Source of the DNA: an uncultured Acidobacteriota bacterium
GTDB lineage: Bacteria > Acidobacteriota > Vicinamibacteria > Vicinamibacterales > CAVVIG01
Length of the DNA: 64,000 bases
NCBI GenBank assembly: GCA_963697745.1
Contig: CAVOPD010000016.1
Location: 24,931 to 88,930 of the forward strand
Reading direction: 5' to 3'
Position 1 is the first letter of the stretch. Each line of letters starts with the position of its first letter. The translations under genes were made by a program, and so were the position numbers. Below the pieces are notes generated by a model. The model saw only the letters and a program-made list of their open reading frames with translations, had not been told where the DNA came from and did not search any database. Positions 23,119 through 58,413 of this stretch are shown in pieces.

Positions 23119-23135
23119 CTATGCGCTTTCGGCAA
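23119..23135 (-). promoter_or_regulatory. Conserved intergenic motif TGCCGAA-N3-GCATAG, copy oriented toward the sigma-54 activator gene
   Basis: Plus strand reads CTATGCGCTTTCGGCAA. Lies 229 nt upstream of the start at 22890. Confidence 0.35.
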
Positions 23136-23139
23136 CGAC

Positions 23140-23158
23140 GCCGACCTGAAGGGTCGGC
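23140..23158. repeat. REP-like hairpin GCCGACC-TGAAG-GGTCGGC
   Basis: 7-bp perfect stem. Same hairpin family as 32298..32315 and 57519..57536. Confidence 0.45.
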
Positions 23159-23171
23159 AGTACGATCAGCC

Positions 23172-23835
23172 ATGGCAGTCCAGACCGTCGCACCCGCACG
23201 CGGAGTCCTCGATCCGCTCGATCGCAGCTCGGAGCTGCTGTTCGGGCTGATCATGGTGATGACGTTCACAGGCTCGATCAGCGTCGCCGAATCGGGCCAC
23301 GGACAGATCAGGGACACGCTGCTCGGGGCGATCGGGTGCAACCTGGCCTGGGGCATCATCGACGCGGGGATGTACCTGATGGCGCGCTTCACGGAGCGCG
23401 CGCGCGGTCTCATCACGCTGAAGGCGATCCGGGAGGCGCACGACGCCGCTCAGGCTCATCTGCTGATCGGCGAGGCTCTCCCCTTCGGGTTGTCGCGCCT
23501 GATAGCCGACGAGGACTTCGAGCGGGTACGCGGCTGGCTGCGCGAGGTGCCGGCGCCGGTGCACGACGCCGCCATCACCCGCGAGGACCTGGCGGGCGCG
23601 ATTCGGCGTCTTCCTGCTGGTCTTCCTGTCGACCTTCCCCGTCGTCATCCCGTTTCTGCTGATGCGCAACGCCGGACCCGCGCTGCGAGTTTCGCACGCG
23701 GTCGCGATCCTCATGTTGTTCCGGGTCGGCTGGTCGATCGGCACACACACGGGCCGCTCCGGATGGCGGGTCGGGCTCCTGATGGTGGTCGTCGGCACGG
23801 CGCTGGCCGTGATGACAATGGCGCTCGGCGGGTGA
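23172..23835 (+). CDS. VIT1/CCC1-like (VIT family) membrane protein; one frame disruption near 23.60 kb
   Basis: ORF 23121..23948 is correct up to ...REDLAGAI. A +1 shift then gives GVFLLVFLSTFPVVIPFLLMRNAGPALRVSHAVAILMLFRVGWSIG...MALGG and a TGA at 23833..23835. N-terminal motif is DPLDRSSELLFGLIMVMTFTGS. Family call is by recall. Confidence 0.55.
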
Positions 23836-24065
23836 TGCGCGTCAGCGGCGACCGGGTCATCACATGCTGTGACCCTCCCACGGCGCATTGTGACCCGTTG
23901 CCGGTGCCGTGTGCCGATCCCGGCGGACATCGCCCGCCAATACGCTGATTGAGGACGGTTGTCGATTCCCTTACAGGCACCCGAGACTGGCAAGCCCGGT
24001 GCAAACCTGCTGAAACACGGTGTGGCAGTGAGACGAATCACGCGTGACCAAGGTTCCTGACTGAC

Positions 24066-25739
24066 ATGGTGATTGCCGCGCGCGACTGGCTGTCGACGTA
24101 CGACCGGACCTGGCTTCGAGCAGACGTCATGGCCGGCGTCACGCTCGCGGCCTATCTGCTGCCAGCCGCGATCGGCGATGCCTCGCTCGCCGGTCTGCCG
24201 CCACAGGCGGGCCTCTACGCCTGTCTGTTCGGCGGGCTGGTGTTCTGGATCTTCTGCAGCTCCCGCCAGACAGCCGTCACCATCACGTCGGCGATCTCGC
24301 TGCTGATCGGCGCGTCGCTCGCGGAGATTGCGTCGAACGATCCAGCACGTCATGCGGCGCTGGCTGCCTGCACGGCACTTCTGGTGGCGGCGATGGCATT
24401 TACGGCGTGGGCGCTTCGTGCCGGTGCGATCGTCAACTTCTTCTCGGAGACCGTGCTGGTCGGCTTCAAGTGCGGAGTCGCATTGTTCCTCGCAAGCACC
24501 CAGCTGCCCAAGCTGTTCGGGTTCAGCGGCAGTCATGGGGATTTCTGGGAGCGGATGGCGCACTTCTTCCGCGGCCTGCACGACACCAACCCTACGTCGT
24601 TGATGCTGGGTCTCGCCGCGCTCACGCTGCTGCTGCTCGGCAAGACCGTGCTGAAGCACCGGCCGGTCGCGCTGTTCGTGGTCATCTTCGGCATCATCGC
24701 GGCTCGGGTGGCCCACCTGGATGAGCGAGGCGTCGCGCTGCTGGGCGAGGTGCCGCAGGGTCTGCCGGTGCCATCGTTGCCACTGGTGAGCCGGGCCGAC
24801 ATCAACACATTGCTGCCCCTCAGCATGGCGTGCTTCGTTCTGGCCGTCGTGGAGACGACGGCGATCGGCCGCATGTTCGCCGCGAAGCACGGCTATCGTC
24901 TCGACGCGACGCAGGAGTTCCTCGCCATCGGCGGTGCCAATCTCGCGGCAGGCCTGGGGAGCGGTTTTCCGGTGAGCGGAGGCATGTCTCAGTCGCTGGT
25001 CAACGAGACCGGCGGCGCCCGCACCCCGCTCTCCGGCCTCGTCGCCTCGGTGCTGACGCTGCTGGTGGTGCTCTTCTTCACCGGCGCGCTGCGCTACCTG
25101 CCGCAGCCGGTGCTCGCGGCGATTGTCCTGGTGGCAGTCACGGGCCTCGTCAAGCTCGATGCGCTCAGGCACATCTGGCACTTCAGCCGGGCGGAGTTTG
25201 CCGTCGCCATGATCGCGGTCGTCGGCGTGCTCGGCTCCGGGCTCCTCAACGGCGTGCTGTTCGGCGTCGTGCTGTCGCTGCTGATCCTCCTCCACCGTGC
25301 ATCGCGTCCGAGGGTGGTCGAAGTGGGGCGCGTTCCCGGCACATCCTACTTTGCCGATCTGGCACGTCACCCCGACAACGAGCGCCTGGCCGACGTGCTC
25401 GTGATTCGAATGGAAGGATCGCTGCTCTACTTCAACGTCGATCACGTCCGCGATCGGGTGCTGGCGTTCGTGAGCGGCCCCCCCACGCCGCCACGCCTCG
25501 TGGTGTTCTTCCTGGGCAATGTTCCCTTTGTCGATCTCGCCGGCGCCGAACTCCTGCTCGATCTGCACGCCACGCTGCGCCGCCGCGGCATCGATGTGCG
25601 GCTCGCCGAGGCGCGGGGAGAAGTGCGCGAGGCGCTGCGTCGCCTCAACCTGATCCAGGCGAACCGACTCGTCGAAGCGAACCAGACGGTAGACGACGTG
25701 ATCAGCAAGTGGCGGGTGACGGTGCAGGCGCAGGCGTAG
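24066..25739 (+). CDS. SulP-family anion transporter with C-terminal STAS domain
   Basis: ORF 24066..25739, intact. N-terminus WLRADVMAGVTLAAYLLPAAIGDASLAGLPPQAGLY, multiple TM segments, STAS tail. Confidence 0.9.
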   Translation: MVIAARDWLSTYDRTWLRADVMAGVTLAAYLLPAAIGDASLAGLPPQAGLYACLFGGLVFWIFCSSRQTAVTITSAISLLIGASLAEIASNDPARHAALAACTALLVAAMAFTAWALRAGAIVNFFSETVLVGFKCGVALFLASTQLPKLFGFSGSHGDFWERMAHFFRGLHDTNPTSLMLGLAALTLLLLGKTVLKHRPVALFVVIFGIIAARVAHLDERGVALLGEVPQGLPVPSLPLVSRADINTLLPLSMACFVLAVVETTAIGRMFAAKHGYRLDATQEFLAIGGANLAAGLGSGFPVSGGMSQSLVNETGGARTPLSGLVASVLTLLVVLFFTGALRYLPQPVLAAIVLVAVTGLVKLDALRHIWHFSRAEFAVAMIAVVGVLGSGLLNGVLFGVVLSLLILLHRASRPRVVEVGRVPGTSYFADLARHPDNERLADVLVIRMEGSLLYFNVDHVRDRVLAFVSGPPTPPRLVVFFLGNVPFVDLAGAELLLDLHATLRRRGIDVRLAEARGEVREALRRLNLIQANRLVEANQTVDDVISKWRVTVQAQA

Positions 25740-25747
25740 CGTGTGGG

Positions 25748-27115
25748 ATGACACGCGCGATGAACCACTGGATGCAACCGCTGCTGATTCTGCTCTCGCT
25801 GCTGACGCCGACATGCGTGCTGGCCCAGGCCCACGACGCGCCGCCGAGCCAGCCGGACGAAAGAACGACCGGGTTGCCCTCCCGAATCGACTGGACGTTC
25901 AACCTCGACGCGACATGGGGCACGTTCGGGTTCGCCAACTCACTGTTCGAAAACCCGAAGGAGGGCGTGGCGGAGGATCTGAGCGATCAGTGGTTCGAAG
26001 GATCGCTCAAGCCGGCACTCTCGGGCGTGTTCACCAGCGGATCATCGGGAGAGATCTACGGAAGGATGAGTGGCGTCGGCGAGCGGACGTACGGTTCGGC
26101 ACCGGCGCTGGTCGGCGAGGATGTCTCTTCCTTTCAGGTCGAGGATCTCACCATCGGCTGGCGATCGGCACAGATGGCCGTGCCTGGCGAGCACGCATTC
26201 GATGTCTCAGTCGGCCGCACGCCGTACACGATCGGCCATGGTCTGCTGCTGTGGGACGGTGCTGCCGAGGGCGGCAGCCGCGGCGGGTACTGGACGAACG
26301 CGCGCAAGGCATTCCAGTTCGCCGCGATCGGGCGCGCGCACGTGGGCCGTCACAAGGCCGACGTGTTCTATCTGGACAAGGACGATCTCCCGGAGCAGGA
26401 CACCGGGACCAGGCTGTGGGGCACGAACTACGAGCTGACCATCGACGACCACACGACGCTCGGCGCGGCCTACCTTGGATTGTTCGCCGATCCGGAACGC
26501 GCCCCGCAGCGGGACGGTCTGCACGTGCTCAACCTTCGCGCCTATTCGGCGCCGCTCGCGCGGGCCCGCGATCTCTCCTTCGAGTTCGAATACGTCGTCG
26601 AGCGACGTGGCGATCTGCGTCACTCCGACGGATGGACCCTTCAGTCAGCGTATGCGTTCAGCGGCGTGGGCTGGACCCCGACGCTCACCTACCGGTATGC
26701 CTCATTTCAGGGCGACGATCCGGCGACTCCGCGCAATGAGGCGTTCGACCCGTTGTTGCCCGGCTTCTCCGACTGGGGCAGATGGTGGCAGGGAGAAATC
26801 GTCGGTGAATATGCCGTCTCCAACTCCAACCTGAACTCGCAACTGGTCCGCGTGCATGTTGCACCGGGCGATGCGGTTGGCGGAGGATTGATGTTCTACA
26901 AGTTCACGGTCGGCCAGCCGGCGACGTTCGCTCCAGGTGTAACCGACAGCAATCTGGCGCTCGAAGTTGACGGCTACGTGGACTGGAAGATCAACCAGCA
27001 CTTCACTGCCAGCCTCGTCGCGGCAGGCGCCAACCCGCAGACCGCCGCACAGCAGGCATTCGACCGGAGGAAGAACTTCGCGTACGGCATGCTCTTTCTT
27101 GCCTACAGTTACTAG
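25748..27115 (+). CDS. Outer-membrane beta-barrel (alginate-export/porin-like)
   Basis: 3' part of ORF 24830..27115. ATG at 25748 gives the signal peptide MTRAMNHWMQPLLILLSLLTPTCVLAQA. C-terminus is ...MLFLAYSY. Family call is tentative. Confidence 0.6.
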   Translation: MTRAMNHWMQPLLILLSLLTPTCVLAQAHDAPPSQPDERTTGLPSRIDWTFNLDATWGTFGFANSLFENPKEGVAEDLSDQWFEGSLKPALSGVFTSGSSGEIYGRMSGVGERTYGSAPALVGEDVSSFQVEDLTIGWRSAQMAVPGEHAFDVSVGRTPYTIGHGLLLWDGAAEGGSRGGYWTNARKAFQFAAIGRAHVGRHKADVFYLDKDDLPEQDTGTRLWGTNYELTIDDHTTLGAAYLGLFADPERAPQRDGLHVLNLRAYSAPLARARDLSFEFEYVVERRGDLRHSDGWTLQSAYAFSGVGWTPTLTYRYASFQGDDPATPRNEAFDPLLPGFSDWGRWWQGEIVGEYAVSNSNLNSQLVRVHVAPGDAVGGGLMFYKFTVGQPATFAPGVTDSNLALEVDGYVDWKINQHFTASLVAAGANPQTAAQQAFDRRKNFAYGMLFLAYSY

Positions 27116-27135
27116 CGCAGGGTCTCACAGAACAT

Positions 27136-28581: not shown

Positions 28582-28601
28582 CGAGAACGGATTTGTGCCC
28601 A

Positions 28602-31113
28602 TGCTTCCTCCAAACACTCAGCCATCGGCCCGGACCACGGACATCCTGTCAACCGACGTGCGCACCGGCATGACCGTTCTCGATTTGAAGCAGTCGTTCC
28701 TCGACAATCTTCGGTGCGGGCTCGGTCGAAGCCTGGAGCGAGCGACGCGGCGCGACGCCTACACGGCGCTCGCGCTCACAGTTCGCGACCGGGTCTTCGA
28801 ACGCGGGGTGCAGACACTGGAGCGATACGCGGAGGAGGACGGGCGCGTGGTGGCCTACCTGTCCGCCGAATTCCTGCCCGGTCCGCACATGGCCAACAAC
28901 CTTCTGAGCCTCGGGCTCACCGCCGTGGCGCGGCAGGCGATGTCCGAACTCGGACTGGATTTCGACGACCTGCTGGAGCAGGAGGAGGAGCCTGGCCTCG
29001 GCAATGGCGGCCTCGGGCGGCTCGCGTCCTGTTTCCTCGACTCGCTCGCGGCGCTCGAGGTCCCGGCCGCCGGCTACGGCATCCGCTACGAATTCGGGAT
29101 CTTCGATCAGCGCATTCAGGACGGCTGGCAGGTCGAAGTGACCGACAAGTGGTTGCGCTTCGGAAATCCATGGGAGATCGTCCGGCCCGAGATCGCCTAC
29201 GACGTGATGTTCGGCGGCCGCACCGAGAAGTGGACCGACGACCAGGGACGCTTCCGCGTGCGCTGGATCCCGGACACCGTCGTGAAGGGCGTCGCGTATG
29301 ACACGCCGATCCTCGGCTACCGTGTGTCCGACCTGCAATCCGCTTCGCCTCTGGAAAGCCGAGGCGGTGGAATCGTTCGACTTCGCCGCGTTCAATCACG
29401 GCGATTACTACCGGGCGGTGAAGGACAAGATGGACTCGGAGAACATCACCAAGGTGCTGTATCCGAACGACGAAGTGCTCCAGGGCAAGACGCTCCGCCT
29501 GCAGCAGCAGTTCTTCTTCGTCTCCTGCTCGCTGCAGGACATGCTTCGCGTCCACCTGATGCTCGATCGTCCTCTCGACACGTTCCACGAACGATGGGCG
29601 GTTCAGCTCAATGACACGCATCCGGCGGTTGCGGTCGCCGAACTGATGCGCCTCCTCGTGGACGAAAACCAGCTGGAATGGGAGGTCGCCTGGAACATCA
29701 CGCGAAAGACGCTCGCCTATACCAATCACACGCTGCTGCCCGAAGCCCTCGAGAAGTGGCCCATCGGCCTGTTCGGCCGCCTCCTGCCGCGTCACCTCGA
29801 GATCGTCTACGAGATCAACGCGCGCTTCCTCGAGGACGTTCGCGCCGCCTTTCCCGGCGACGATGCCCGCCTCTCGCGCATGTCGATCATCGATGAAAGC
29901 GGCGAGCGGTTCGTGCGGATGGCGAACCTGGCAACGGTGGGCGGTCATCGCGTCAACGGCGTCGCGCGGCTGCATTCCGATCTGCTCAAGCAGACCGTGA
30001 TGCGCGACTTCGCGGAGCTGTGGCCCGATCGGTTCTGCAACGTCACCAATGGGGTCACCCCACGCCGGTTCGTCGCCTTGAGCAATCCGGCGCTGACCCA
30101 GCTCATCACCGATCGCATCGGCGATGGGTGGCTGCGCGACTTGAATCAGCTGCGACAACTCGAGGCGTTCGCCGACGATGCGGCGTTTCAGGACGAGTGG
30201 CGCGCGGTGAAGCTGGGCGCGAAACGTACGCTGGCCGAGATCGTCGAACGACGTACGGGCGTCAGGATCCGCCCGGAATCGCTGTTCGACATTCAGGTCA
30301 AGCGGCTGCACGAGTACAAGCGCCAGCACCTCAACGTGCTCCACATCCTGACGCTCTACCTGCGGTTGACGCGCGGCGATGGGCGCGGACCTGCCGGCAC
30401 GCACCTTCCTGTTCGGCGCCAAGGCTGCTCCCGGCTACTTCATGGCCAAGCTGATCATCAAGTTGATCAACTCGGTGGCCAGCGTGGTCAACCACGATCC
30501 GGCGGTTCGCGATCGCCTCAAGGTCGTGTTCTTTCCCGACTACAACGTGAAGCACGCCCAGCCGATCTTTCCGGCCGCCGACCTGTCGGAGCAGACGTCC
30601 ACGGCAGGCAAGGAGGCGTCGGGGACCGGGAACATGAAGTTCTCGCTCAACGGCGCGCTGACGATCGGGACCCTCGACGGCGCCAACGTCGAGATTCGCG
30701 AGGAGGTCGGTCCCGAGAACTTCTTCCTGTTCGGCCTGGATGCCGATCAGGTGCAGGCGTTGAAGTCGGCTGGCTACCGGCCGCGCGATTACTCGGACTC
30801 GAATGCGATGCTTCGCGAAGTCCTGGACTTCATCGCGTCTGGCGCGCTCGCTGGCGGTGACAAGGAGCTGTTCCGTCCGCTGGTGGACAATCTGCTCGAT
30901 CACGATCCCTTCCTGGTGCTCGCCGACTATCAGTCCTATGTGGAGTGCCAGGCGCAGGTCAGCACGCTGTGGCTCGATCCGCAGGCATGGACGCGCACGT
31001 GCATCCTCAACGTGGCACGAATGGGGAAGTTCTCGTCAGACCGTTCGATCCGCGACTACTGCGCGCAGGTGTGGAACGTCGAGCCGGGCCGGCGTCCGCG
31101 TGCCTCCGTGTGA
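28602..31113 (+). CDS. glgP: Glycogen/maltodextrin phosphorylase; two frame disruptions (about 29.33 and 30.38 kb)
   Basis: Fragments are ORFs 28316..29614 (from the ATG at 28602), 29298..30860 and 30379..31113. Motifs: [20 protein letters not shown], and the PLP-lysine motif [10 protein letters not shown]. Confidence 0.9.
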
Positions 31114-31123
31114 CGGCCGGCAT

Positions 31124-31141
31124 GCCGAAACCGCATAGTCC
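31124..31141 (+). promoter_or_regulatory. Conserved intergenic motif TGCCGAA-N3-GCATAG, copy upstream of DUF481 gene
   Basis: Reads GCCGAAACCGCATAGTCC. Lies 88 nt upstream of the ATG at 31229. Confidence 0.35.
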
Positions 31142-31228
31142 CGGTAACTCGACGGTGGTGCAATAGCGGGTGTGTCCGGCGTGTGTGGTCAACGAGAAGC
31201 CCCTGGCTGTACGGCATCGCGTCAGGTG

Positions 31229-32266: not shown

Positions 32267-32297
32267 GGAGGGCGGGTCAGGCGGGAGGTCGGGCAGC

Positions 32298-34435: not shown

Positions 34436-34508
34436 CTGCGCTCTTCGTCGTCGGGTCTGAAGACGGGACTACAATTCGGGGCTGAAAACCCGACGCTGCA
34501 ATTCGGGG

Positions 34509-35543
34509 CTACAGCTTGAGGCCGAAGGTATTCGACCAGCCGTAGTCGTTTCTCGACAACCCTGCCGGCGGAGTGCTGTCGAAGTTCTCGAACAGGCCGA
34601 TGCGGAAGTACCAGTCGCCGGGCAGGTTGAAGTCGAGGTCGAACTTGTAGTTGATCCGGTACCGTCCGTCGATCGTCAGGCTCGGATAGTAGGTGAAGCG
34701 CGTGACCAGGTCCGTGATCTTGAGCTTCTCGGTCATGAACTCGGTGCCGAAGTAGGCTTCGGCGGAGTCCTTCGTCAGGATCGCGACATCCGAGTAGTTC
34801 TCATTCGTCCAGGCAAGCCCGGCGCTGGCCGATAGATATTGCGAAGCAGACCGAAGCAGGTAGCGGCCACCGCCGGCGCCAATCGTCGAGCGAAGGTCGA
34901 GTCCCTGCTCGTCGCTGTTCAGGAAATCCTGAGTCGCGTTGGCATACCACCGATCGCCAATGAGATATCGGAAGTCATTCCCGAGATCCCACCGTTGCGT
35001 TTCCGGCGCGTTGGACTGGGAGCTGCTGAACACGTTGCCCAGCACCGTATCGATGACCTGCCTGTCCCGATACAGCAGGTTGCCGCCGACCGTGAGCTGC
35101 TTGGCCGAGTTCGCCTGCGTCATGCTGTAGCCGAAATCGAAACCCGCGTCGAACCTGGACCAGAAGGTGAGCTCGAAGGGCTGCATGGCCGCCAGATCCG
35201 CCAGGGCGATGCTGACAGCCCCGACCTCCACGGTCGCTTTCTTCGCCGGATCGGTCTTCAAGGGACCGTCCACACGCCTTCCGTCGAACGTCTCCAGCAG
35301 AAACTGCCGCGGACTCTCGATCGAGGCCACCTTGTCCCACTCGATCTTGAAATCGGAGTCCGAGTAGCCGGTGGACATCGTCAGCACGTCTTTCTCGAGC
35401 TTCTTGATTTCGCCGACCAGCTTTTCACCCGTCGTCGTTGTCACCACGTCGGTCTGGGCGGATGCAGCCGCCACAGTGATGAACAGCAGCAGAATCGCGA
35501 ACGCACAAACCCGATGGATACTGGACAGCATCGATGGCTCCAT
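34509..35543 (-). CDS. DUF481-family outer-membrane protein (paralogue of 31229..32266)
   Basis: ORF 34509..35543, intact. Signal peptide, then TGEKLVGEIKKLEKDVLTMSTGYSD. Ends ...SNTFGLKL. Confidence 0.7.
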   Translation of the reverse strand: MEPSMLSSIHRVCAFAILLLFITVAAASAQTDVVTTTTGEKLVGEIKKLEKDVLTMSTGYSDSDFKIEWDKVASIESPRQFLLETFDGRRVDGPLKTDPAKKATVEVGAVSIALADLAAMQPFELTFWSRFDAGFDFGYSMTQANSAKQLTVGGNLLYRDRQVIDTVLGNVFSSSQSNAPETQRWDLGNDFRYLIGDRWYANATQDFLNSDEQGLDLRSTIGAGGGRYLLRSASQYLSASAGLAWTNENYSDVAILTKDSAEAYFGTEFMTEKLKITDLVTRFTYYPSLTIDGRYRINYKFDLDFNLPGDWYFRIGLFENFDSTPPAGLSRNDYGWSNTFGLKL

Positions 35544-37470: not shown

Positions 37471-37609
37471 CCCCCACCTTGCTGAGCATGAAAACGTTCT
37501 TGCCTTCTGGCGTTCCTCGAGCCTACGTGGGCGCGTCCCAGCTCGTGAACCGGACCATGAGTCGACAGGCTTGCTTGGGAACAGTGTAGAAGCCGGCTAA
37601 TCCCGGCGA

Positions 37610-37625
37610 CTATGCACATTCGGCA
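37610..37625 (-). promoter_or_regulatory. Conserved intergenic motif TGCCGAA-N3-GCATAG, copy upstream of the 627-aa gene
   Basis: Plus strand reads CTATGCACATTCGGCA. Lies 140 nt upstream of the start at 37470. Confidence 0.35.
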
Positions 37626-37917
37626 CAACGAGACAGCGGAACCGCCCAAGCCGCAAGGGCCGACTCGTCCTCGGCATGGAGAGATTCAGTCGTCCATCTC
37701 AGAGCGGATCGCGGGGCACGGCAACCTGGAGCCACGGCAAGCCGGGGCGCAACCGATTTAGGACGGTTGCGGGGCGGTTCCGGCTGTCATGGGACAAGGC
37801 CCGCAGGATGGCCGGCGTTGGAATCTGGTGGGAACAGAAGCCGCCGCGGAGCTGACTCAGCACGAGAGTCTGCTCGAACGGCTGCCAGCGATGTGCGTTG
37901 CCGCCTGTGCCGCTCGT

Positions 37918-38484
37918 CTATTTGGGTGCCTTGCCCGTCACGGTGGTCTCCTCGGACATTTCAGTCGTCGGCGCTTCGACAATCCTCGTCGCCGAGACCT
38001 TCATGCCCTTTCGCAGTTCTTTGACCGATGCGGGCTTGCCTTCCACCACGAAGCTGAAGGAATCGGGCACTTCGTACTCGTGGTTCGTCCCGTTTTCGAG
38101 TGTCAGAATCACGAAGTTGCCCTGCACATACCACACCGTCCCGTTTGTGAGGGTCACCGTCCGAACGGTGATGGGTTGCGTCTTGGTGATGACCGTAGCG
38201 GTGAGGGTCGTCCCGGGCTTGAGATCGCTGATGGTTTTGGTCTGTCCGTCGATGACGAACTTCCGTCCCGGCGGCGTTTCGAACAGCCGAAGCGCTCCGT
38301 CAGGCTGCATCTTGACCAGGAGCCGATTGCCGTCCACGACGACAACAGTTCCGGTCAGTTGCGCCGTGGTGACCTGAATCCCGGCCTCCGCCGCCTTGGA
38401 TTGCGTCGTCTGCTGCGCCCGCAGGCTCGTCGCCGTGGCAACGATAACCAGCAGACCGATGATGACTGCGAATCGTGACCTCAT
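37918..38484 (-). CDS. Secreted beta-rich hypothetical protein (188 aa)
   Basis: ORF 37918..38484, intact. Signal peptide MRSRFAVIIGLLVIVATATSLRAQQ. Repeated G-T-V..VD...L.V / K.GT/D..V pattern. Confidence 0.6.
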   Translation of the reverse strand: MRSRFAVIIGLLVIVATATSLRAQQTTQSKAAEAGIQVTTAQLTGTVVVVDGNRLLVKMQPDGALRLFETPPGRKFVIDGQTKTISDLKPGTTLTATVITKTQPITVRTVTLTNGTVWYVQGNFVILTLENGTNHEYEVPDSFSFVVEGKPASVKELRKGMKVSATRIVEAPTTEMSEETTVTGKAPK

Positions 38485-38647
38485 GTTCCGTCTCCTTTTG
38501 TTTCGTAGCTGCTCTCGAGGCTGCTCGGCTGGGCAGGAACAGTGCCGAGATTACCCTCCACATGTGCCAACCGTAGCCTACTGATCCATAGAACCCGGAA
38601 TTACAGGCGAGTTCCCGCCTTCTCCCGCCACGAGATGACCGCCATGT

Positions 38648-39896
38648 TCAGAACCGGATACGCGCACCGAACAGAATCGGGAGCGACCACCGCGAACTCG
38701 CGCTGTTGATGTCCCGCAGGCCCTCTTCAACCAGCCAGTCCACATCCGACAATCCGCCCAGGAAGCGGATCTGTGCCTCGCCTATCACCTCGAAGGGACC
38801 GACGCCGATGAGGAAGCCGCCGGTAGGACCGAGGCTGAAAGCCCACGACTTTTCGAAGAACTTGCCGTCCTGCGCTGCCAGGCCCGGCGTCAGATTGGCC
38901 GGCGTGTCTATGAACGTCCCGCGAATGTCCTGATGCCGATTGATTCCGACGAGGTATCCGAGGTACGGCGTGAAGCGCGTCCGGGCGAAGAACCACCGCT
39001 GGCCACCTTCGATACCCCAGTATTTGTACTCAGTGAAGAGCACATTGAGGGCAACCTGGGGGTTGGTGCCTGCCGTGCCGATCCGCGTCGCCATATCGTT
39101 GGGATCACTCTTCGAATAGACGAAATTGAAGACGCCCTCGGTGCGCGGGGTCGTCCGATAACCGACACCGAGCTTGAACATCCCCATTCGGCCGTACACG
39201 TCGTCGAAGGAGGTTTCATCCAGGTTGATTGGCACGCCCGTCGTCGTAAAGCCGGCGGACTCCTTGATCATTTTTCCGCTGAACTGGTTGTCAACGCCGA
39301 ACAGGACCGAAACAGTCAGGCGGTTCCTGAGGGTGTCGAGGGGCGCCTGAGACTGGAGAGTCACTGCCTCGGTCCTGGTGACGTCCACACGGTCCCCCAC
39401 CTTGAGGCCTGAGACGATGGCAGGATCGGTGGCGTCCAGGAGTCGCCGTGAGTAGCTGGTCCCGTTCGGTCCTGTGAATGTCACGACCTTATCGGCTGGC
39501 GACCAGCCAGTAATGGTCACCGTCGCGACCCGCTGCCTGGTTCTCGTGGCGCCTGGCAGGGCGCCTGGTGTCGCTGTCACTGCCGGTTGCACGGTCTGAT
39601 CGACCGCAGGTTCACCCGCGGGCTTAACCCGCACGCTGATGCGGTCGTAGTAGGTGGCCGTCACGGGATCGCCAACCTTGACCTGGTCGAACCGCGTGGC
39701 ATTCTCGGGTACGTCGAGCGTGGTCACAGTGCCTTGCTGCGACCGAATGGTTACCGTGCGGGCACTGTGGTCGACGGCCGCTACAGTCCCCTGGACCGTC
39801 ACCGGTACTCTCCGCCTCTCGCGTTTGCGCGGTCGAGACAGCCGGCGCCAACATCAGAAATCCTAAACAGGTGAAAAAGCGGAGTCGTCCAGCCAT
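38648..39896 (-). CDS. Outer-membrane beta-barrel with ~150-aa N-terminal periplasmic extension; one frame disruption near 39.81 kb
   Basis: ORFs 39624..39896 (signal peptide MAGRLRFFTCLGFLMLAPAVSTAQ) plus 38648..39802. The barrel is homologous to 45364..46113: both share DDVYG and the C-terminus SSRW(S/T)LP..G.R.RF. Confidence 0.65.
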
Positions 39897-40007
39897 TGAA
39901 TCTCCTCTTGGGCCGCCGGGGTGATGGTGACACTGAGGCGCCGAAGGCGAGCCTCGGAAGCCTACTTGCTGCAGAGCACGTGAGGCATCATCGGCATCGA
40001 TTCAGGC

Positions 40008-40550
40008 CTACGGCTTCTCCTTGGGCTTGGCCGGCGGATACTGCTTGAACATCTTGTCGAGGGCTTTCTGCACCTTCTTGGCGTTCTTATCCGCCTTGTC
40101 GCTCGCCGTGTCCGTCCCGGTACCTCGCCATGCCAGCTTCTTCGTGGCGGCGTCATAGATGTCGAGCACCAGCGTTCCGGTCGTATACGAGTTCACCTGC
40201 GAGGTCGTGGTGCCCATTCCGCCTCCATAGCGGTAGTAGCCGCCTCCGTAGCCGTAGCCGGTGGTGATGACTTCCTTCTCCTCTTTGGTGACGAGGTGGG
40301 TGGCGATCGCGACGTTGGGATTCGCGGCGGCTTTGGTAAAGCCGGCGGCGGCCATCCGCTTGTCGACCTCATCGTGAATACGCTGTTCGCCGAGCGGATT
40401 CGGCGACGGCGTTCCGTCGACCCAGGCGTAGGTCTTGAACTTGCCGAAATCCGCGGCCGGGTCGAAGTCCACGTTCACCTTCTGGGCGAACGCCACCGCC
40501 GGCAGCAGCACCATCGCGGTGACGGCGACTGACTTGATAAGCATCTTCAT
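40008..40550 (-). CDS. DUF4136-family periplasmic/lipoprotein-like protein
   Basis: 3' part of ORF 40008..40850; ATG at 40550 (MKMLIKSVAVTAMVLLPAVAFAQ). Contains DFGKFKTYAWV and GTLVLDIYDAATKKLAWRG. Confidence 0.7.
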   Translation of the reverse strand: MKMLIKSVAVTAMVLLPAVAFAQKVNVDFDPAADFGKFKTYAWVDGTPSPNPLGEQRIHDEVDKRMAAAGFTKAAANPNVAIATHLVTKEEKEVITTGYGYGGGYYRYGGGMGTTTSQVNSYTTGTLVLDIYDAATKKLAWRGTGTDTASDKADKNAKKVQKALDKMFKQYPPAKPKEKP

Positions 40551-40611
40551 GGTTCTCTCTCCTGGGTTACGAGTCTCTCGTTGGCAGATTAGAGAGTGCG
40601 GAGGCCACACA

Positions 40612-40628
40612 CTATGCACTTTCGGCAA
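40612..40628 (-). promoter_or_regulatory. Conserved intergenic motif TGCCGAA-N3-GCATAG, copy upstream of DUF4136 gene
   Basis: Plus strand reads CTATGCACTTTCGGCAA. Lies 62 nt upstream of the ATG at 40550. Confidence 0.35.
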
Positions 40629-44970: not shown

Positions 44971-45119
44971 GGCTCTCTCCTGCTCGGACTCTTCCGGGGT
45001 CCCGGTCGCGCGAGGTGGCCACTGTCTTCAGAGTCGCCGCGATCTGAAGCCGGCCACGTTCAAGTGCGAGGATTGGTGCACTGATTTGGTGCCACTGTAC
45101 GGCGTGGACCCGCTCAGCG

Positions 45120-45134
45120 CTATGCGAATTCGGC
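45120..45134 (-). promoter_or_regulatory. Conserved intergenic motif (G)GCCGAA-N3-GCATAG, copy oriented toward GH63 gene
   Basis: Plus strand reads CTATGCGAATTCGGC. Lies 150 nt upstream of the start at 44970. Confidence 0.35.
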
Positions 45135-45163
45135 GCGCTGTCCTTGTGCGTACGGGTGCTGCG

Positions 45164-45195
45164 TGCCTTGCTGCCTTGCTGCCTTGCTGCCTTGC
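45164..45195. repeat. 8-bp tandem repeat TGCCTTGC (3 perfect + 1 imperfect unit)
   Basis: tgccttgc tgccttgc tgccttgc tgccttcg, read directly. Located in the divergent intergenic region. Confidence 0.8.
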
Positions 45196-45263
45196 TGCCT
45201 TCGCCCTTTGCGCCTGTTCGCGCCTCTTTGGCGTGTCCTTTGCCTCCAGGCGGCGTGGCGCTT

Positions 45264-45281
45264 GCCGAATCCGCATAGTCC
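45264..45281 (+). promoter_or_regulatory. Conserved intergenic motif TGCCGAA-N3-GCATAG, copy upstream of OMP gene
   Basis: Reads GCCGAATCCGCATAGTCC. Lies 83 nt upstream of the ATG at 45364. Confidence 0.35.
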
Positions 45282-45363
45282 ATGAACGATCCGCGCGGAT
45301 ATCTTTAGACAACGGGGAAGGGTGGACCTTCGCCCACTGACAGATCACGCAGGGAGTGAACTC

Positions 45364-46113
45364 ATGAAGAGGAACGGGACCATTACCGCGGCGGCATTGA
45401 CAGTCGCACTGTTTGCGGCTGCCGGCTCAGCCGCACAAGCCCAGAGCGCTAACCCGGAAAAGCCCTGGAGCGTCGATTTCGGTCTCGGCTGGGACAACAG
45501 CATCAGCGGCAACATCAACTCGGGCGCCATCGGCACCCTCAATGGCGTGACGACGGTGATCACGAAGAACAGCTACGAAGACGTCTACGGCACCGGGCTC
45601 CACCTTCGCTTTGGCGGAGGCTACCTGCTCAACAGCAATACGGAAGTCCGCGCCACCTTCGCATTCCAGTCGCTCGACGCCGATCTCACGCCGATGGGTC
45701 AGATCGGGTCGTCCAACCTGTACGGCCAGTACTCGGATTACCAGAGCCTCTCGCTCGATTTCGGTGTTCGTCAGTACGGCGACATCAACCCGAAAGTGCG
45801 CGGCTACGGCGAGGCGCTGATCGGCCTTGGCTTCGTCGACAAGACCGACGTGACGCTGGCCGCACCGGGTGCCAACCTGACGCAGAAGGCCAACGACTTC
45901 TACGATCAGACAGCGGCGCTCTCGCTCGGCGTCAATGTCGGCGTCCTCGTTCAGACGCGCGACACCGTCGGTTTCTTCGGCCAGATCGGCATCAGGCGGA
46001 TGGGCGGCATGACCGAGATCGACAACCTCCAGGGCACCGGCCTCGAAACCATCAACGACAACAGCTCACGCTGGACTCTTCCCTTCATCGTCGGCATTCG
46101 GGCGCGGTTCTAG
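45364..46113 (+). CDS. Outer-membrane beta-barrel protein (paralogue of barrel in 38648..39896)
   Basis: ORF 45322..46113; ATG at 45364 (MKRNGTITAAALTVALFAAAGSAAQA). Ends NSSRWTLPFIVGIRARF. Confidence 0.7.
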   Translation: MKRNGTITAAALTVALFAAAGSAAQAQSANPEKPWSVDFGLGWDNSISGNINSGAIGTLNGVTTVITKNSYEDVYGTGLHLRFGGGYLLNSNTEVRATFAFQSLDADLTPMGQIGSSNLYGQYSDYQSLSLDFGVRQYGDINPKVRGYGEALIGLGFVDKTDVTLAAPGANLTQKANDFYDQTAALSLGVNVGVLVQTRDTVGFFGQIGIRRMGGMTEIDNLQGTGLETINDNSSRWTLPFIVGIRARF

Positions 46114-46114: not shown

Positions 46115-48338
46115 ATGAACCTGACGCGGCCTGCGTGTGCCGTCGGCCTGGCGATCATCATCGGCGTGATTGGCAGTCCGGCTGCAGCGCAGGAGCCGCC
46201 GCGGCCGAAGGTTGGCGTCGCCTTCGGCGGCGGCAGCGCGCGCGGCATCGCCCATGTCGGCGTCATCCGCTGGTTCGAGGAACACCACATCCCGATCGAT
46301 CTGGCGGCCGGCACCAGCATGGGCGGCCTCATCGGCGGGTCCTTTGCCAGCGGCATGGACGCCGACGAAATTCAGGCGATGCTGCGCGGCATCAACTGGG
46401 ACGAGATGTTCGGCTTCTCGAGCTTCGCGTTCAAGAACATCCGCCGCAAGGCCGACGCGAGGGCGTATCCCTCGCACCTCGAGTTCGGGTTGAAGAAGGG
46501 CGTCGCGATGCCAAGCGCGCTCAACAACGGCGAACAGGTGGACCTGCTGATCACGCGCATCACGGCGCCGTATTACGCCGCGCCCACGTTCGATGCGCTT
46601 GCCGACGCCGTTCCGGGTGGTGGCGGTGGACCTCAAGACGGCGACTCCGGTCATCATCGACCGCGGTTCGCTGGCGGGCGCCCTGCGCGCCACGATGTCG
46701 CTGCCAGGCATTTTTCCTCCGATTGAAGCCGGCGGCATGGTGCTCGTGGACGGCGGCGCCATGAACAACGTGCCGGCCGACGTCGTCCGGTCGATGGGCG
46801 CGCAGGTGGTGGTCGCCGTCAACGTGGGCGACCTCGACGATCAGGAGACGATCAGCTATTCGATACTCGGGCTGATGGGCGCCACGCTCGACGCGATGAT
46901 GCGCGCAAACACAAAGAAGGCGCTTCCGGCAGCCGACGTCATCCTCTCGGTTCCGCTCAAGGAATACGGGTCGCTCGCGTGGCGCCGCAGCGACGAACTG
47001 ATTGACGAGGGATACAAGGCCGCTGAGGCGATGAAGGCGACGCTGCTCCCGTACGCCGTCTCCGACGCGCAGTGGCAGGCGTGGGTCGATCAGCGGTCCG
47101 CGGCGCGCCGGCGAAGCGTACCCTCGCCTGCATTCGTCAACCTGCAAGGCGTCAAGTCAGGCGACGAGCGGCGTCTCACCGAGATTCTGGCGAAACACAT
47201 CGGCCGGCCGCTGGATGTGCCGTCTCTCGAATTCGACCTCGAGGAACTGTCTGGCCTCGATCGCTACGAGACGATCCGCTGGCAGATGACCACCAGCGAC
47301 ACCGGCAGCACCGGGCTCACCATCCGCGCCACCGAGAAGCCGTACGCGCCGCCGTTCCTGATGCTCGGCGTCAGCCTCGAGAACACCACCTCGGACCAGT
47401 TCCAAGTGAGCCTTGCCGGCCGCTACCTGCGGTTCGACGTGCTCGGCTCCGGCTCCGAACTCCGGCTCGATGCCACCGTCGGATCGGATCCCTCGGTGGC
47501 GGCCGCACTCTATCACCCGCTATGGCGTTCGACATTCGTGTCCCCGTACATCGGCGTCAGCAACCGCACATATAACCTGATCCAAAATGACACCGTGGTG
47601 GCCCGCTACGGGCAGACACTCTCAGCGGGTGGTCTCGACCTCGGCGTGAACCTCGGTCGCGACAGCGACTTTCGTGTCGGCGCCACGCTGGGCCACCTCG
47701 ACGCCAACGTCATCGTCGGCGATCCCGGGCTGCCATCCGCAGCAGGCAAGGCCAGCAGGGCTCACGCCGTCTGGCGCATGAACACCCAGGACCGCGTCGT
47801 CGTGCCAACCCGCGGGGTTTCAGCCCAGGCGGGGCTCGAATACACGGTGGACGGCCCCGACATCACCAGCACGGTGGAAATCGACACCACGCGCTCGAGC
47901 GTCGATCTTCCGCAGTTCAGCGGCGAATCCAACTTCTTCAAGACGATCAGCGAAAAGAACACGCTGTTCGTCCTCGGTGGTGCAGGCACGTCGTTCTCGA
48001 ATCATCCGCTGCCGACCGATCAATTCGTCCTTGGCACACCGCTGCATTTGAGCGCCTACAGCGTCGGCGAGGTTCGGGGCGACCACTACTGGCTTGGGAC
48101 GGTAGGCTACCTGCGCGAGGTCGGTCGGATGCCTGACTTTCTTGGCGGCGCGGCGCACGTCGGGGTCTGGTTCGAAAACGGCGACGCGTTCGACGACTGG
48201 AACAAGCTGTCGTGGCGCACCCATGTCACCACGGGCTTGATCGTCGACACGCTGATCGGACCGATGCTGCTCGGCGGCAGCGGGGGGTTCGACGGCCGCT
48301 GGCGAACGTATGTCGGCATCGGTCGTCTGTTCCGCTGA
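46115..48338 (+). CDS. Patatin-like phospholipase fused to an Omp85/surface-antigen-type beta-barrel (PlpD-like, type Vd architecture); one frame disruption near 46.60 kb
   Basis: ORFs 46115..46726 plus 46593..48338. Signal peptide, oxyanion motif GGGSARG, nucleophile GTSMGG, catalytic Asp motif VDGGAMNNVP, then a ~400-aa beta-rich C-terminal region. Confidence 0.8.
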
Positions 48339-48348
48339 TCGCGCGTGA

Positions 48349-53429: not shown

Positions 53430-53441
53430 GATCATGCCTCC

Positions 53442-54389: not shown

Positions 54390-54468
54390 CGAGCACACTC
54401 CGGATAAAGGCTGACCCAGGTCAGTTCACTGACCGTGCTTGTAGTCCTGACGAAATAGCGAAGACGCG

Positions 54469-54810: not shown

Positions 54811-54975
54811 TCGGTCCTCATGTTCCTGGCCGTCGCCGGCCGCTTCACCAGACCCGTTCCCGATGCGCCTCGATTGTGAACGGTGCTAGGTATTTACCAC
54901 AATTGCGCTTGGCTTATGTCCCGATCTATCGCGACATGTTCAGATGGCTCCAGAAGTTTCACTGCAAGAGCCGCC

Positions 54976-57355
54976 TCAGCGTGGCCGTCGTCCCGCCGCC
55001 GGGGCGATTGGTACACGCACGCGCACGGTCGTGCCCCCACCGACGGTCGCCTGCCATGAAATCTCGCCTCCCACAGCCCGGACACGTTCGCGCATGCTGA
55101 CCACACCGAGCGACTGCGTGGGCAGCAGCGACGGATTGAAGCCAATCCCTTCGTCGACGATCCGCATCGCGATGGCGTCGCCCTGGTGCACCAGGTCCAC
55201 CATCGCGTGTTTCACGCCGCTGTGCTTGATCACGTTCTGCAGTGCTTCCTGCGCGACCCGATAGAAACACAACGTGATGTCCGCCGGCAGCACGCGCGGC
55301 ACCTCGCGCGCAGTGAATCGGACCGTCAGCATTCCGCCGCTTTCGAGTTCCCTGCAGAAACCGCCGATGGCGGCCGCCAGTCCCAGCTGATCGAGCTTGG
55401 CGGGGTGCAACCCGTGCGAGAGGCGATGAACCTCTCTCGACAACGCGGCGGTATTTGCAGAGAGCTCGCGCATCCGCAAGGCGATCTGCACCGGCTCCTG
55501 CGGCGGATGCTGGCCGTAGAGATCGAGCTCGATCGCGAGCAGGGCCAGATTCTGGCTGAGTCCATCATGCAGTTCCTTGGCGAGCCGCCGCCGCTCATCT
55601 TCCTGCGCACCAATCAATCGTCCGCTCAGCTCGTGGAGGGCGGCGTCGGAACGTTTCCGCTCGGTGATGTCCTGGATCACCCCCATCTGACGGATGCACT
55701 GTCCCGCGGCATTGCGCTCGGAAACGTGAGCGAGGTGACGGAACCAGAGTTCGCCGCGCTGCGGATGAACAAACCGGTATTCGGCATTGGCCTGATCCAA
55801 CCCGCCTCTCTCGACGTCCTCGTTGAGCGACATGACGTGCCTCATGTCCTCGGGATGCACATGGGCCATCCAGTGCTCGCTGAGACGTTGTTCCTGACCC
55901 GGCGGCAGACCGAGCAGCGCTGCCAGCCGGGCGTCCACGAAACTGCATCGAGCGCCAACCGGCCCTTCCTGTTCGTAGAATCCGAGCATGGCGACGTCGA
56001 CCGCCGTGGCGAGTCTGGCTTTGTGCTTTTCGAGTTCGGCGCGCTGGTGCATGCGCTCGCCGATGTCATCGACCACCACGATGAAACGCTCAGGCTCGCC
56101 AGGGCCTTGCCGCACGAGCGACGCGGTCACGTTCACCCAGACGACGGTCTGGTCTTTTCGAATGTAGCGCTTCTCCAGAGAGTAGGTCCGGATCTCATCG
56201 TCCAGAATCTGCATCCGGTACCGAATGTCGGCCGCCAGGTCGTCGGGGTGCGTGATCTCCGGGGTCGTCAGCGTCAGCAACTCGTGGCGCGGATAGCCGA
56301 CCAGGGCGCACAGCCTGTCGTTCACCTCCAGGAAGCGCCCGTCGAGTCCGACATGCGCTATCCCCACCGCCGCATGCTCGAATGTGGCGCGGCTGACCTC
56401 CTCGGAGCGGGCGGCGGCTTCCTCCGCCAGCTTGCGGGTCGTGATATCCGCCGAAACCCCCAGCACCTTGACCGGTTCTCCTGAGGACGCCAAAGCGGAT
56501 GCGACTCCGCGTGACCAGCCAGCGGAGCCCGGCGTGCGGGTGGAAGATGCGGTGCTCGAGTCGTCCGACGCTCCCCTGAAGGGTCACATGCCAGTCCGTG
56601 CGAAGCCGCTCGCGGTCGTCTGGATGGCTCAGCGCGACGATCGTGTCCTGCGTGACGACCACGTCCTCGGGGAGCCCGTACAGTTCCCGCGCTTTGGGTG
56701 TGGCCCAGTACTCGCCCGTCGCCAGATCGAGTTCCCATACACCCACGCCCGCAGCTGCGGCCACCAGGCCGAGCCGCGCCTCGCTTTCGCGCAACGCCTC
56801 GTCTGACCTCCGGCGCGCGAAGGTGGCGGCGAACATGTCGGCGATCACCCGGAGTCGATCGACCAGATGGCCAGGCCAATTGCGTTCACACCGGGTCGAG
56901 CCGAACGACAGTGCGCCGAGCGGCGTGTCGCCGACAACGAGTGGGAGCGTGAGGTTCGACTTCGTGCCAATGCGTCGGAAGGCGTCGTTGTCCGTGGCCG
57001 CCTCGGGGGGCAATTCGTCGACAGAAGAAAACTGGACGGTCTGACGAGCACGGATCCGCTGCGTGCTCCAGGGGAACATGTCGGCAACGCCCTCGGATGC
57101 GAGAGACACGCGGACCAGCCCCTCTCGTGCCCACCCGTGAGTGAACACGGGCTGCTCGTGCGGACCAGTGAACTGAGTGACGGTGCTGCGGTCGATGTCC
57201 AGGGTTTCGCAGATACGCTGCTGCGCGTTCTCGATGGCGACGTCCACGTTACCCGCCGGCAGGTGAACGAAGGTCGACGCCAGATCGGCGATCAGCCGCT
57301 CGAAGGAGAGGCGTTCTTCGAGTGCGGAGCGCAGGACGGCGGCTTCCGGCGTCAT
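54976..57355 (-). CDS. Sensor histidine kinase, GAF + multiple PAS + HisKA_3 + HATPase_c; one frame disruption near 56.50 kb
   Basis: ORFs 56195..57355 plus 54976..56493. H-box ELHDGLSQNLALL and ATPase region VDEGIGF...GGEISWQATVGGGTTVRVRVP. No TM segment seen. Confidence 0.85.
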
Positions 57356-57518
57356 AGGTAGCTTCTTTCACGCCCATTGTAGTGGATGGGTTGAAGAAGA
57401 CCGAGTTAACACTCTGACCAGACCGGCATGTGACTGACGCGCCCGGGCGTGACGACTTGATCGTCAACGCTCCGGGCCCAGACAGGAGTCTTCAGGTGTG
57501 TGTCAGATCGGCGCAGCT

Positions 57519-57570
57519 GCCGACCTTCAGGTCGGCGCCGTGTGGCGAACCTGAAGGTTCGCGGCCACAC
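57519..57570. repeat. Two adjacent REP-like hairpins (GCCGACC-TTCA-GGTCGGC; GTGTGGCGAACC-TGAA-GGTTCGCGGCCACAC)
   Basis: Read directly. They lie just downstream of the OMP gene end (57593) and upstream of the kinase gene, so they probably act as a terminator. Confidence 0.5.
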
Positions 57571-57592
57571 CACGCCGATCGTGCAAACGGTT

Positions 57593-58267
57593 CTAGAAGC
57601 GGAAGGTGACGCCGGCGTTCAGTTCGAACTGGTTCGAGTACTGCGCGTCGCCCACCACATAGCAACCCCAGTACGGATCGCACCACCAGCCTTCGGAGTC
57701 GGACTTGATGTAGGTCGGTGTCCAGCGCGCGCCGAAGCGGAAGCCCGCTTTGGGGGTCGGGTACACCTTCACGCCGGCGCCGATCGTGCCCGAGAACTGG
57801 GTGTCGCCGCCGAGTTCGCGCTGCTGGCCGGCCAGCGTCGTGAAGTTCAACGTGCCGTAGTTCGTCGCGCCGAGCCCGAACAGGAAGTACGGCCGGACCG
57901 AGGCATCCGAGGCACCGCCGTTGTATTCCACGTAGCCGTGGTAGGTGGACACCGTCATGTCGCCCAGCGTTCTCGTGTTGGTCCCGCTCACCTCGAGCTG
58001 CGACAGCTGCTGGGTCCACAGGAACCCGACCGCGATGTTGTCGCTGACGAACCCGCCCGCCTGCAGGCCCCAGTGGAACGAGTCGGTCGGGTCCACCCGG
58101 TCGTAGATGTTGCCATCGCCGCCCAGGACCGGGGTCTCGGCGCTCACGCCGTCCGAGAAGGTCCAGCCAAAGAGGACGCCCACCTCCGCTCGGGGCGATT
58201 GCGCGAAGGCCGGAGCCGCCGCCAGAAACACGGCCATGGTCGCCGTCACGAGTGATGTCTTCAACAT
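57593..58267 (-). CDS. Small outer-membrane beta-barrel protein
   Basis: ORF 57593..58267, intact. Signal peptide MLKTSLVTATMAVFLAAAPAFAQ. Ends NAGVTFRF. Confidence 0.75.
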   Translation of the reverse strand: MLKTSLVTATMAVFLAAAPAFAQSPRAEVGVLFGWTFSDGVSAETPVLGGDGNIYDRVDPTDSFHWGLQAGGFVSDNIAVGFLWTQQLSQLEVSGTNTRTLGDMTVSTYHGYVEYNGGASDASVRPYFLFGLGATNYGTLNFTTLAGQQRELGGDTQFSGTIGAGVKVYPTPKAGFRFGARWTPTYIKSDSEGWWCDPYWGCYVVGDAQYSNQFELNAGVTFRF

Positions 58268-58395
58268 GATTGATGTCCTTGAAAGATGGTTTGTGCGCAG
58301 GGACCTGGCACCGGAACTGGCAGGCGTCCACGCCCATACCCGCTCCTCGTATTCGACTCTCCGTTCGAACCTTACCGGCCAGCGCGCGGGGCCGG

Positions 58396-58413
58396 CTATG
58401 CAGATTCGGCAAG
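58396..58413 (-). promoter_or_regulatory. Conserved intergenic motif TGCCGAA-N3-GCATAG, copy upstream of OMP gene
   Basis: Plus strand reads CTATGCAGATTCGGCAAG. Lies 129 nt upstream of the start at 58267. Confidence 0.35.

Follow-up and report, generated by a model that had tools for sequence, protein, structure and literature searches.

An asymmetric box in the place of the -35 element marks a putative activator-dependent promoter class in Vicinamibacterales, with a stand-alone AraC/XylS-type protein as its candidate reader

The stretch of DNA analysed here (henceforth the window) comprises 64,000 nucleotides from an uncultured Acidobacteriota bacterium of the order Vicinamibacterales and corresponds to C16:24931-88930, that is, to part of contig C16 in a genome assembly (G000) of 5.53 Mb, 66% G+C and 21 contigs. 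A first-pass annotation had noted in this window seven intergenic copies of a 17-mer containing GCCGAA-N3-GCATAG, each directed toward the next gene start, and on recheck the coordinates and orientations of all seven, as well as the distances quoted from each box to its start codon, proved correct. An eighth exact copy lies at 458-472 (+), upstream of a gene encoding an outer-membrane protein (OMP), and a further copy of the box is found 157 nt to the left of the window edge. Next to the eighth copy, at the left end of the window, lies a gene for a small AraC/XylS-type protein that we propose as the reader of the box. The gene and the eight sites, each with the hexamer that we read as its -10 element and the gene that follows, are:

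20..403 (+): gene for a stand-alone AraC/XylS-type DNA-binding protein of 127 aa, the proposed box reader.

457-473 (+): box TGCCGAAACTGCATAGC, 20-nt spacer, -10 TACATT at 493-498 (whole element 457..498); followed by the gene for a 321-aa Phenol_MetA_deg-type OMP, from GTG 505 to 1470 (+), whose start looks leaderless.

23134-23118 (-): box TGCCGAAAGCGCATAGT, 20-nt spacer, -10 TATCGT at 23098-23093 (whole element 23093..23134); followed by the gene for a GAF-AAA+-HTH (helix-turn-helix) sigma-54 activator, 22890-21436 (-).

31123-31139 (+): box TGCCGAAACCGCATAGT, 20-nt spacer, weak -10 TGCAAT at 31159-31164 (whole element 31123..31164); followed by the gene for a DUF481 OMP, from GTG 31172, 7 nt past the -10, to 32266 (+).

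37625-37609 (-): box TGCCGAATGTGCATAGT, 21-nt spacer, -10 TACACT at 37588-37583 (whole element 37583..37625); followed by the gene for a 600-aa secreted protein, 37470-35668 (-), in which no Pfam family was found.

40627-40611 (-): box TGCCGAAAGTGCATAGT, 20-nt spacer, -10 TAATCT at 40591-40586 (whole element 40586..40627); followed by the gene for a DUF4136 lipoprotein, 40550-40008 (-), and probably also driving the next OMP gene (39727-38648) and a 188-aa gene (38484-37918).

45135-45119 (-): box CGCCGAATTCGCATAGC, the weakest copy, its leading T replaced by C, 20-nt spacer, -10 TACAGT at 45099-45094 (whole element 45094..45135); followed by the gene for a GH63/MGH1-like glycoside hydrolase, 44970-42841 (-).

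45263-45279 (+): box TGCCGAATCCGCATAGT, 21-nt spacer, -10 TATCTT at 45300-45305 (whole element 45263..45305); followed by the gene for a 249-aa OMP, 45364-46113 (+), and then by a patatin-Omp85 gene, 46593-48338.

58411-58395 (-): box TGCCGAATCTGCATAGC, the top-scoring copy, with a position weight matrix (PWM) score of 33.8, 21-nt spacer, -10 TAAGGT at 58374-58369 (whole element 58369..58411); followed by the gene for an OMP_b-brl protein, 58267-57593 (-).

The eight copies of GCCGAA-N3-GCATAG in the window compare with 0.01 expected by chance, and none of 100 dinucleotide-preserving shuffles of the window reached this number. The G000 genome as a whole contains 11 exact copies, nine of them on C16. 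A PWM scan of the same genome recovered 14 strong sites (PWM at least 22), as opposed to two in a reversed-sequence control, and 11 of these 14 fall within C16:12.9-83.3 kb, a region that makes up 1.3% of the genome (binomial P ~5e-19).

We read the anatomy of the element from 126 non-redundant sites in G000 and in 80 loci of other Vicinamibacterales genomes; to avoid circularity, these sites were collected with a matrix restricted to the box. Conservation across these sites is limited to an asymmetric box of 18 bp, T-GCCGA-W-W-C-Y-GCATAG-Y(C), and the hexamer TAnnnT; no other conservation was found in the 30 nt upstream and the 65 nt downstream of the box. The box itself is composed of two unlike blocks, GCCGA and GCATAG, whose centres lie 9-10 bp apart within a site of 17-18 bp. 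The distance from the box to the start of TAnnnT is 20 nt at 70 sites and 21 nt at 32, which accounts for 102 of the 126 sites (81%) and leaves at most one site at each other offset (P ~5e-180); every copy in the window likewise has a TAnnnT-like hexamer 20-21 nt past the box. With TAnnnT placed at -12 to -7, the box covers positions from about -48 to -32, its centre being close to -40.5. It occupies the usual place of the -35 element, and there is no -35-like conservation, positions 17-34 from the box start being unconserved. The earlier view that the two halves of the box are not a -35/-10 pair agrees with this layout, in which the box as a whole precedes a separate -10, TAnnnT, by a constant 20-21 nt.

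The location of the sites relative to genes points in the same direction. The genomes of the relatives are soil metagenome-assembled genomes (MAGs), many from long-read assembly, and several genes are frameshifted as a result. Since our own gene caller covers only 64% of the genome on account of such frameshifts, location statistics were computed on open reading frames (ORFs) filtered by G+C content at third codon positions (GC3), with mirrored and random controls. Boxes lie inside coding sequence at 18 of 118 sites, where about 54 would be expected, and an ORF start is found 25-275 nt downstream of the box at 98 of 117 sites (84%), compared with 49 of 117 (42%) in the mirrored control and 39% at random positions. 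An equal frequency inside genes and in both orientations, the outcome that the first-pass annotation had named as telling against its proposal, is therefore not what these counts give. At 27 of 121 sites (22%) the start codon of a long ORF (at least 100 aa) stands 7-8 nt past the hexamer, versus about 2.2 per position elsewhere (Poisson P ~3e-13); in the window, this is the case for the OMP gene at GTG 505 and the DUF481 gene at GTG 31172. Such spacing is the arrangement of a leaderless mRNA and lends independent support to the promoter reading; as judged from these distances, it implies that leaderless mRNAs are common in this order. We consider it very likely that the 17-mer is the activator box of a dedicated sigma-70-type promoter class. 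Two of the roles originally put forward, a lineage-specific promoter element and a binding site for a regulator, both find support in the sequence and turn out to be the same thing.

Which protein reads the box can be approached from its distribution. Among 41 close relatives, genuine sites occur in few genomes, one of which (G013, from another genus) also has its sites clustered on one contig. The clusters of G000 and G013 have two DNA-binding proteins in common, a NarL/FixJ-type response regulator (REC+GerE) and the AraC-type protein, and the response regulator gene lies directly downstream of a box in both. A Crp-family gene behind a box in G013 was considered as reader and rejected: it has no counterpart in the G000 cluster, which makes it a target. 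More widely, genes for the response regulator, a histidine kinase, a sigma-54 enhancer-binding protein and the AraC-type protein form a recurrent module whose neighbourhood is conserved in 39-48 of 62 loci; the conserved genes of this neighbourhood include none for a sigma factor.

We compared the two candidates across 301 genomes of the order with a completeness of 90% or more, using the composite pattern TGCCGAW-NN-Y-GCATAG-N19-21-TAnnnT, which gave 75 matches against three in a reversed control. The composite box is present in 28 of the 33 genomes that encode both the response regulator and the AraC-type protein, in none of the 12 with the response regulator only, in the single genome with the AraC-type protein only (its response regulator gene is frameshifted) and in two of the 255 with neither. 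Sorted by the AraC-type gene alone, this corresponds to 29 of 34 genomes with the gene and two of 267 without it. The five genomes that have both regulators but no strict match do carry variant boxes, as revealed by a relaxed PWM scan, whereas the same scan of ten loci with the response regulator only found no box within 10 kb, including upstream of the response regulator gene. Contrasts of this kind exist within single genera (G122 versus G161; G140 versus G097, G130, G149 and G177). The recognition helix of the response regulator, PRTVAFHKYRMMEQL, is identical in box-positive and box-free genomes, so altered specificity of this protein does not explain the missing boxes. This phyletic link indicates that the box co-evolves with the AraC-type protein, and the response regulator is best read as a conserved target. 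The stand-alone AraC/XylS-type protein encoded at 20-403 is, in our judgement, the probable reader of the box, a somewhat less firm assignment than that of the promoter class.

The predicted properties of this protein suit the role. Pfam recognises HTH_18 (5e-17) and HTH_AraC in its 127 residues and nothing else; the HTH domain begins near residue 15, and in G000 the protein amounts to a DNA-binding domain alone. An AlphaFold model (predicted local distance difference test, pLDDT, 86.7) has seven helices in an HTH-linker-HTH layout, a long helix joining the two HTHs. Profile searches of the PDB returned AraC-type domains; by these and by Foldseek, its closest solved relative is 3mn2, a probable AraC family transcriptional regulator from Rhodopseudomonas palustris (E = 6e-27, 40% identity, template-modelling (TM) score 0.89, root-mean-square deviation 1.4 A), a structural-genomics entry that is likewise a DNA-binding domain of about 108 aa and gives no functional transfer. 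The model also superposes on SoxS and RamA from RNA polymerase activation complexes (TM 0.80) and on MarA bound to DNA (TM 0.71). Across 42 orthologs, whose identity is otherwise 43-61%, neither of the predicted recognition helices (GVSER-LR-AF and ELGRFA--Y) varies. Most AraC-type orthologs have an open frame of at most 200 aa, while about nine of 34 have long frames (266-429 aa); genomes with the long form include G024 (L025), G014 (L027), G175, G231, G283 and G299, and long-form genomes use a GCCGG variant of the box more often. A covariation of the GCCGA and GCCGG variants with residues of the AraC recognition helix was considered and dropped, as it proved to be a clade-level tendency only, confounded by phylogeny.

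Several observations weigh against the AraC-type protein as the reader. Within genomes that have the response regulator, the association of the box with the AraC-type gene has a Fisher P of 2e-7, a statistic that ignores shared ancestry. Two genomes, G048 (C7:127138) and G120 (C3:52686), with the loci L152 and L153, each carry one high-scoring box with a correct -10 while no ortholog of the AraC-type protein or the response regulator was detected in them; these boxes could be relics, or the regulators could lie in unassembled parts. Similarity of the AraC-type protein to MarA, SoxS, Rob and RamA is at the level of the family, with 17-24% identity and E = 2e-6 (RamA), 2e-4 (SoxS) and 3e-4 (Rob); by these comparisons it is not orthologous to any of the four and falls outside their subgroup. 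The stand-alone form is not universal, about a quarter of the AraC-type orthologs having an N-terminal extension (~130-300 aa) without a Pfam match. The box never precedes the AraC-type gene in the same orientation (0 of 80 loci), leaving no autoregulatory signature, although a divergent box lies near this gene in 13 of 80. By contrast, 39 of 67 response regulator orthologs have a box in the same orientation, at a median of 132 nt upstream, the pattern expected of an autoregulated response regulator. Finally, the AraC-type, response regulator, kinase and sigma-54 activator genes travel together, and another co-inherited factor could be the true reader.

The response regulator itself is one such alternative: the box would be the site of this co-located NarL/FixJ-type protein, which when phosphorylated would autoregulate its gene and turn on the other box promoters as well, and the AraC-type gene would be a mere neighbour. 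Among box targets, its gene is indeed the most conserved (37 of the 140 ORFs found downstream of boxes across the order), the protein is present in 28 of the 31 box-positive genomes, and the sequence of the box, divided as TGCCGAW-WC-TGCATAG, permits a reading as a weak 7-2-7 direct repeat. We nevertheless regard this alternative as unlikely, given that the 12 genomes with a response regulator ortholog (up to 74% identity) and no AraC-type gene lack the composite box with the recognition helix unchanged. In addition, GerE-type dimers usually read inverted repeats, whereas the halves of the box share only TGC..A, 9 bp apart; no inverted repeat was found in the box beyond TGC-N7-GCA, and it does not have the symmetry of a GerE-dimer site.

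It is also improbable that the box requires the AraC-type protein and the response regulator cooperatively, or is read by some other co-inherited protein such as the sigma-54 enhancer-binding protein through its Fis-type HTH. The conserved neighbourhood of the four genes would allow for this, and of their products only two, the AraC-type protein and the response regulator, entered the phyletic comparison. However, the region between the box and the -10 is unconserved and contains no GG-N10-GC sigma-54 promoter, enhancer-binding proteins act from distant and usually palindromic sites, and G009, an assembly that is only 62% complete, has the box and the AraC-type gene while no response regulator ortholog was found in it.

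Still less probable, to the point of being doubtful in the extreme, is a box that forms the -35-side element of an alternative sigma factor, of the extracytoplasmic function (ECF) or another type. This idea would be in keeping with a conserved element that keeps a constant distance to a hexamer, is confined to a regulon and has envelope targets like those of many ECF sigma factors. Yet no sigma gene is conserved near the module, the downstream hexamer is TAnnnT of the housekeeping type and not an ECF-type -10, and a box of 17-18 bp ending 20-21 nt from the -10 misfits a hexameric -35 with a spacer of 16-18 nt. Readings of the box as a palindrome or as a sigma-54, sigma-28 or extended -10 promoter were tried as well, and its spacing fits none of them; in the case of sigma-54, the GC dinucleotides within the box are spaced by 9 nt, which is not the spacing of that promoter type, and the -10 found at a constant distance downstream is of the sigma-70 type.

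The two remaining suggestions of the first-pass annotation, part of a mobile repeat of the REP (repetitive extragenic palindromic) or MITE (miniature inverted-repeat transposable element) type or an RNA motif in a transcribed 5' untranslated region, would suit a short, repeated, intergenic box in a window that also holds REP-like hairpins, but can be dismissed, as nothing is conserved outside the box and the -10, no inverted repeat, hairpin or target-site duplication accompanies it, its orientation is strongly gene-directed, it lies upstream of the inferred start with many targets looking leaderless, an Rfam scan of the window gave no match, and the box PWM gives the REP-like elements scores of less than 10.

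These REP-like hairpins, of the form GTCGGGTCT-GAAG-ACCCGAC and then GCTACATTCGG, stand at gene 3' ends, in the window at 15105-15141 and 34450-34510 (near ppk2 and glgX); there are 31 in the genome, unrelated to the box. The sequence CCGAAT(T)GTAG at 15129 and 34466-34508, previously taken for a shorter relative of the box, is the tail of this separate hairpin (box PWM <10) and has no relation to it.

With the AraC-type protein as the favoured reader, a mechanism can be proposed by comparison with known systems. MarA, SoxS and Rob contact DNA as monomers; their sites, about 20 bp long, are asymmetric, and the two HTHs enter neighbouring major grooves, where each recognises a different block. 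When these proteins act at class II promoters, the orientation of the site is fixed and the site overlaps the -35 region. The system described here resembles that of MarA, SoxS, Rob and RamA in Enterobacteria (marbox/soxbox) in its small AraC/XylS-type activator with two HTHs, the sensor domain being absent in most orthologs, and in its asymmetric site of ~17-20 bp, where two unlike blocks are separated by about one helical turn. As at marbox class II promoters, orientation and distance to the -10 are fixed, the site overlaps the -35 position, and many targets are of the outer-membrane-remodelling kind. Unlike the marbox, the box has an unrelated and far less degenerate sequence (15 near-invariant positions). 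The system further departs from those of Mar and Sox in that we saw no partner gene of the MarR or SoxR type, in having a response regulator gene as its conserved core target, and in its phylum, Acidobacteriota. A site at the -35 position followed by a -10 without a -35 is also shared with class II sites near -41.5 (CRP and FNR, and PhoB, whose pho box replaces the -35), the centre being at ~-40.5 here; in contrast to the palindromes bound by CRP and FNR dimers and to the 11-bp direct repeats of pho boxes, the box is asymmetric and non-repetitive.

We infer that the 127-aa protein would bind the box as a monomer in one fixed orientation, with GCCGA read by one HTH and GCATAG, about one helical turn away, by the other. 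Once bound, it would recruit RNA polymerase as a class II activator, and transcription would start ~7 nt past the -10, which at about a fifth of the promoters would be directly at the start codon and yield a leaderless mRNA. The activator would feed into a two-component system via the gene for the NarL-type response regulator, the most conserved target across the order. Some loci have back-to-back pairs of opposite boxes, overlapping or a few bp apart, that serve divergent genes as a compact bidirectional control region (L058 204/221, L059 4446-4483, L063 12135/12143, L071 12091/12096 and G013 C35:111836/111850). Independent boxes placed in this manner are as expected if each binds one monomer.

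In most loci, the AraC-type gene has a conserved upstream layout of its own, consisting of CCTGTCA direct repeats, CAGTT(C/T), ~20 nt, TAnnGT and a start codon 5-8 nt further on. The repeats have a period of 14 or 22 bp and occur in 38 of 70 loci (for example in L057-L136 at about 9850-10000); in G000 the arrangement reads CCTGTCA...CCCAGTTT-N21-TACCGT-N5-ATG (window 1-22 and 60 nt to its left; C16:24876-24952). This may be the control region of the activator gene. The CCTGTCA repeats were also considered as a site of the response regulator; they are absent from loci with the response regulator only and rare in the G000 genome, and no link was made.

The putative regulon of G000 consists of 14 promoters, 11 of which lie in one 70-kb accessory region and serve for the most part genes of outer-membrane and periplasmic proteins. 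Beyond the genes listed above for the window, the targets are the response regulator, two CusF-like two-repeat periplasmic proteins and three genes on other contigs. Across the order, the response regulator gene is followed in frequency by other recurrent targets, namely a 196-aa secreted family (9), DUF4136 (9 loci) and CusF-like proteins (8). Further targets include sulfatases, PP2C phosphatases, sigma-54 activators (the family of the window gene at 22890-21436, in four loci), HisKA_3 kinases, Porin_O_P-type porins and other OMPs. Orthologous targets differ in whether they carry the box: at orthologs of the 600-aa gene it is found in G000 only, and at DUF4136 orthologs in G000, G009 and, weakly, G013. 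In genomes that lack the AraC-type gene, no copy of a target gene has a box. Membership in the regulon is thus plastic. Within one genus, the module is present in G000 and G009, while ten sister genomes are without the regulator, the box and the targets; the targets tested share the patchy distribution of the regulator and are absent from these ten same-genus genomes, so that the module behaves as an accessory unit. That it is a mobile or accessory island, in which an orphan MarA/SoxS-like activator, its highly specific box, a two-component system under its control and a variable complement of envelope genes are gained and lost together, is a tentative reading that we place somewhat short of probable.

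Of the 22 public runs in which the stretch is represented, a single one, X20, is a metatranscriptome; it comes from soil and gave nothing usable at the promoters. It contains a few scattered, near-identical short contigs over the 188-aa, OMP and DUF4136 genes (window 37893-40135); the organism or a close strain is therefore present in X20, and the box-driven DUF4136 operon is probably expressed in situ.

Other features of the region include a tandem 8-bp repeat, TGCCTTGC, of about five units at 45164-45203, between the divergent boxes of the GH63-like and OMP genes; one related metagenome contig (run X19) shows length variation at this repeat, with insertions at 45158-45163. The glycogen phosphorylase gene (window 28601-31113) is broken across three reading frames, and the NarL-type response regulator gene of G000 (C16:12181-12825) is frameshifted near its N-terminus. 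Since the assembly is a MAG built from long reads, both may be assembly indels and not real pseudogenes; were the response regulator frameshift real, the conserved core target would be broken in G000.

Literature searches for the motif or for AraC regulators of Vicinamibacterales returned nothing relevant; it appears that neither the box nor the regulator orthogroup or the regulon has been described. AraC-type class II activation is a well-known mechanism, and the conceptual novelty is moderate in this respect. To our knowledge, there is almost no experimental knowledge of transcription control in Acidobacteriota, which are among the most abundant soil phyla, and every genome found here to carry the system is a MAG. 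For such organisms, the analysis offers a precise promoter model (box, spacer, -10 and start), a candidate activator of 127 aa and a set of targets, with 14 promoters here and more than 120 across the order. The near-invariant box is usable to annotate regulon members and transcription starts in metagenomes, the box and activator could serve as an orthogonal activator/promoter pair, and the leaderless-start signature bears on translation initiation in this lineage. If the island reading is true, Vicinamibacterales would have their first defined transcription-factor regulon and promoter architecture, and an unusually clean case of regulon members clustered physically around their regulator.

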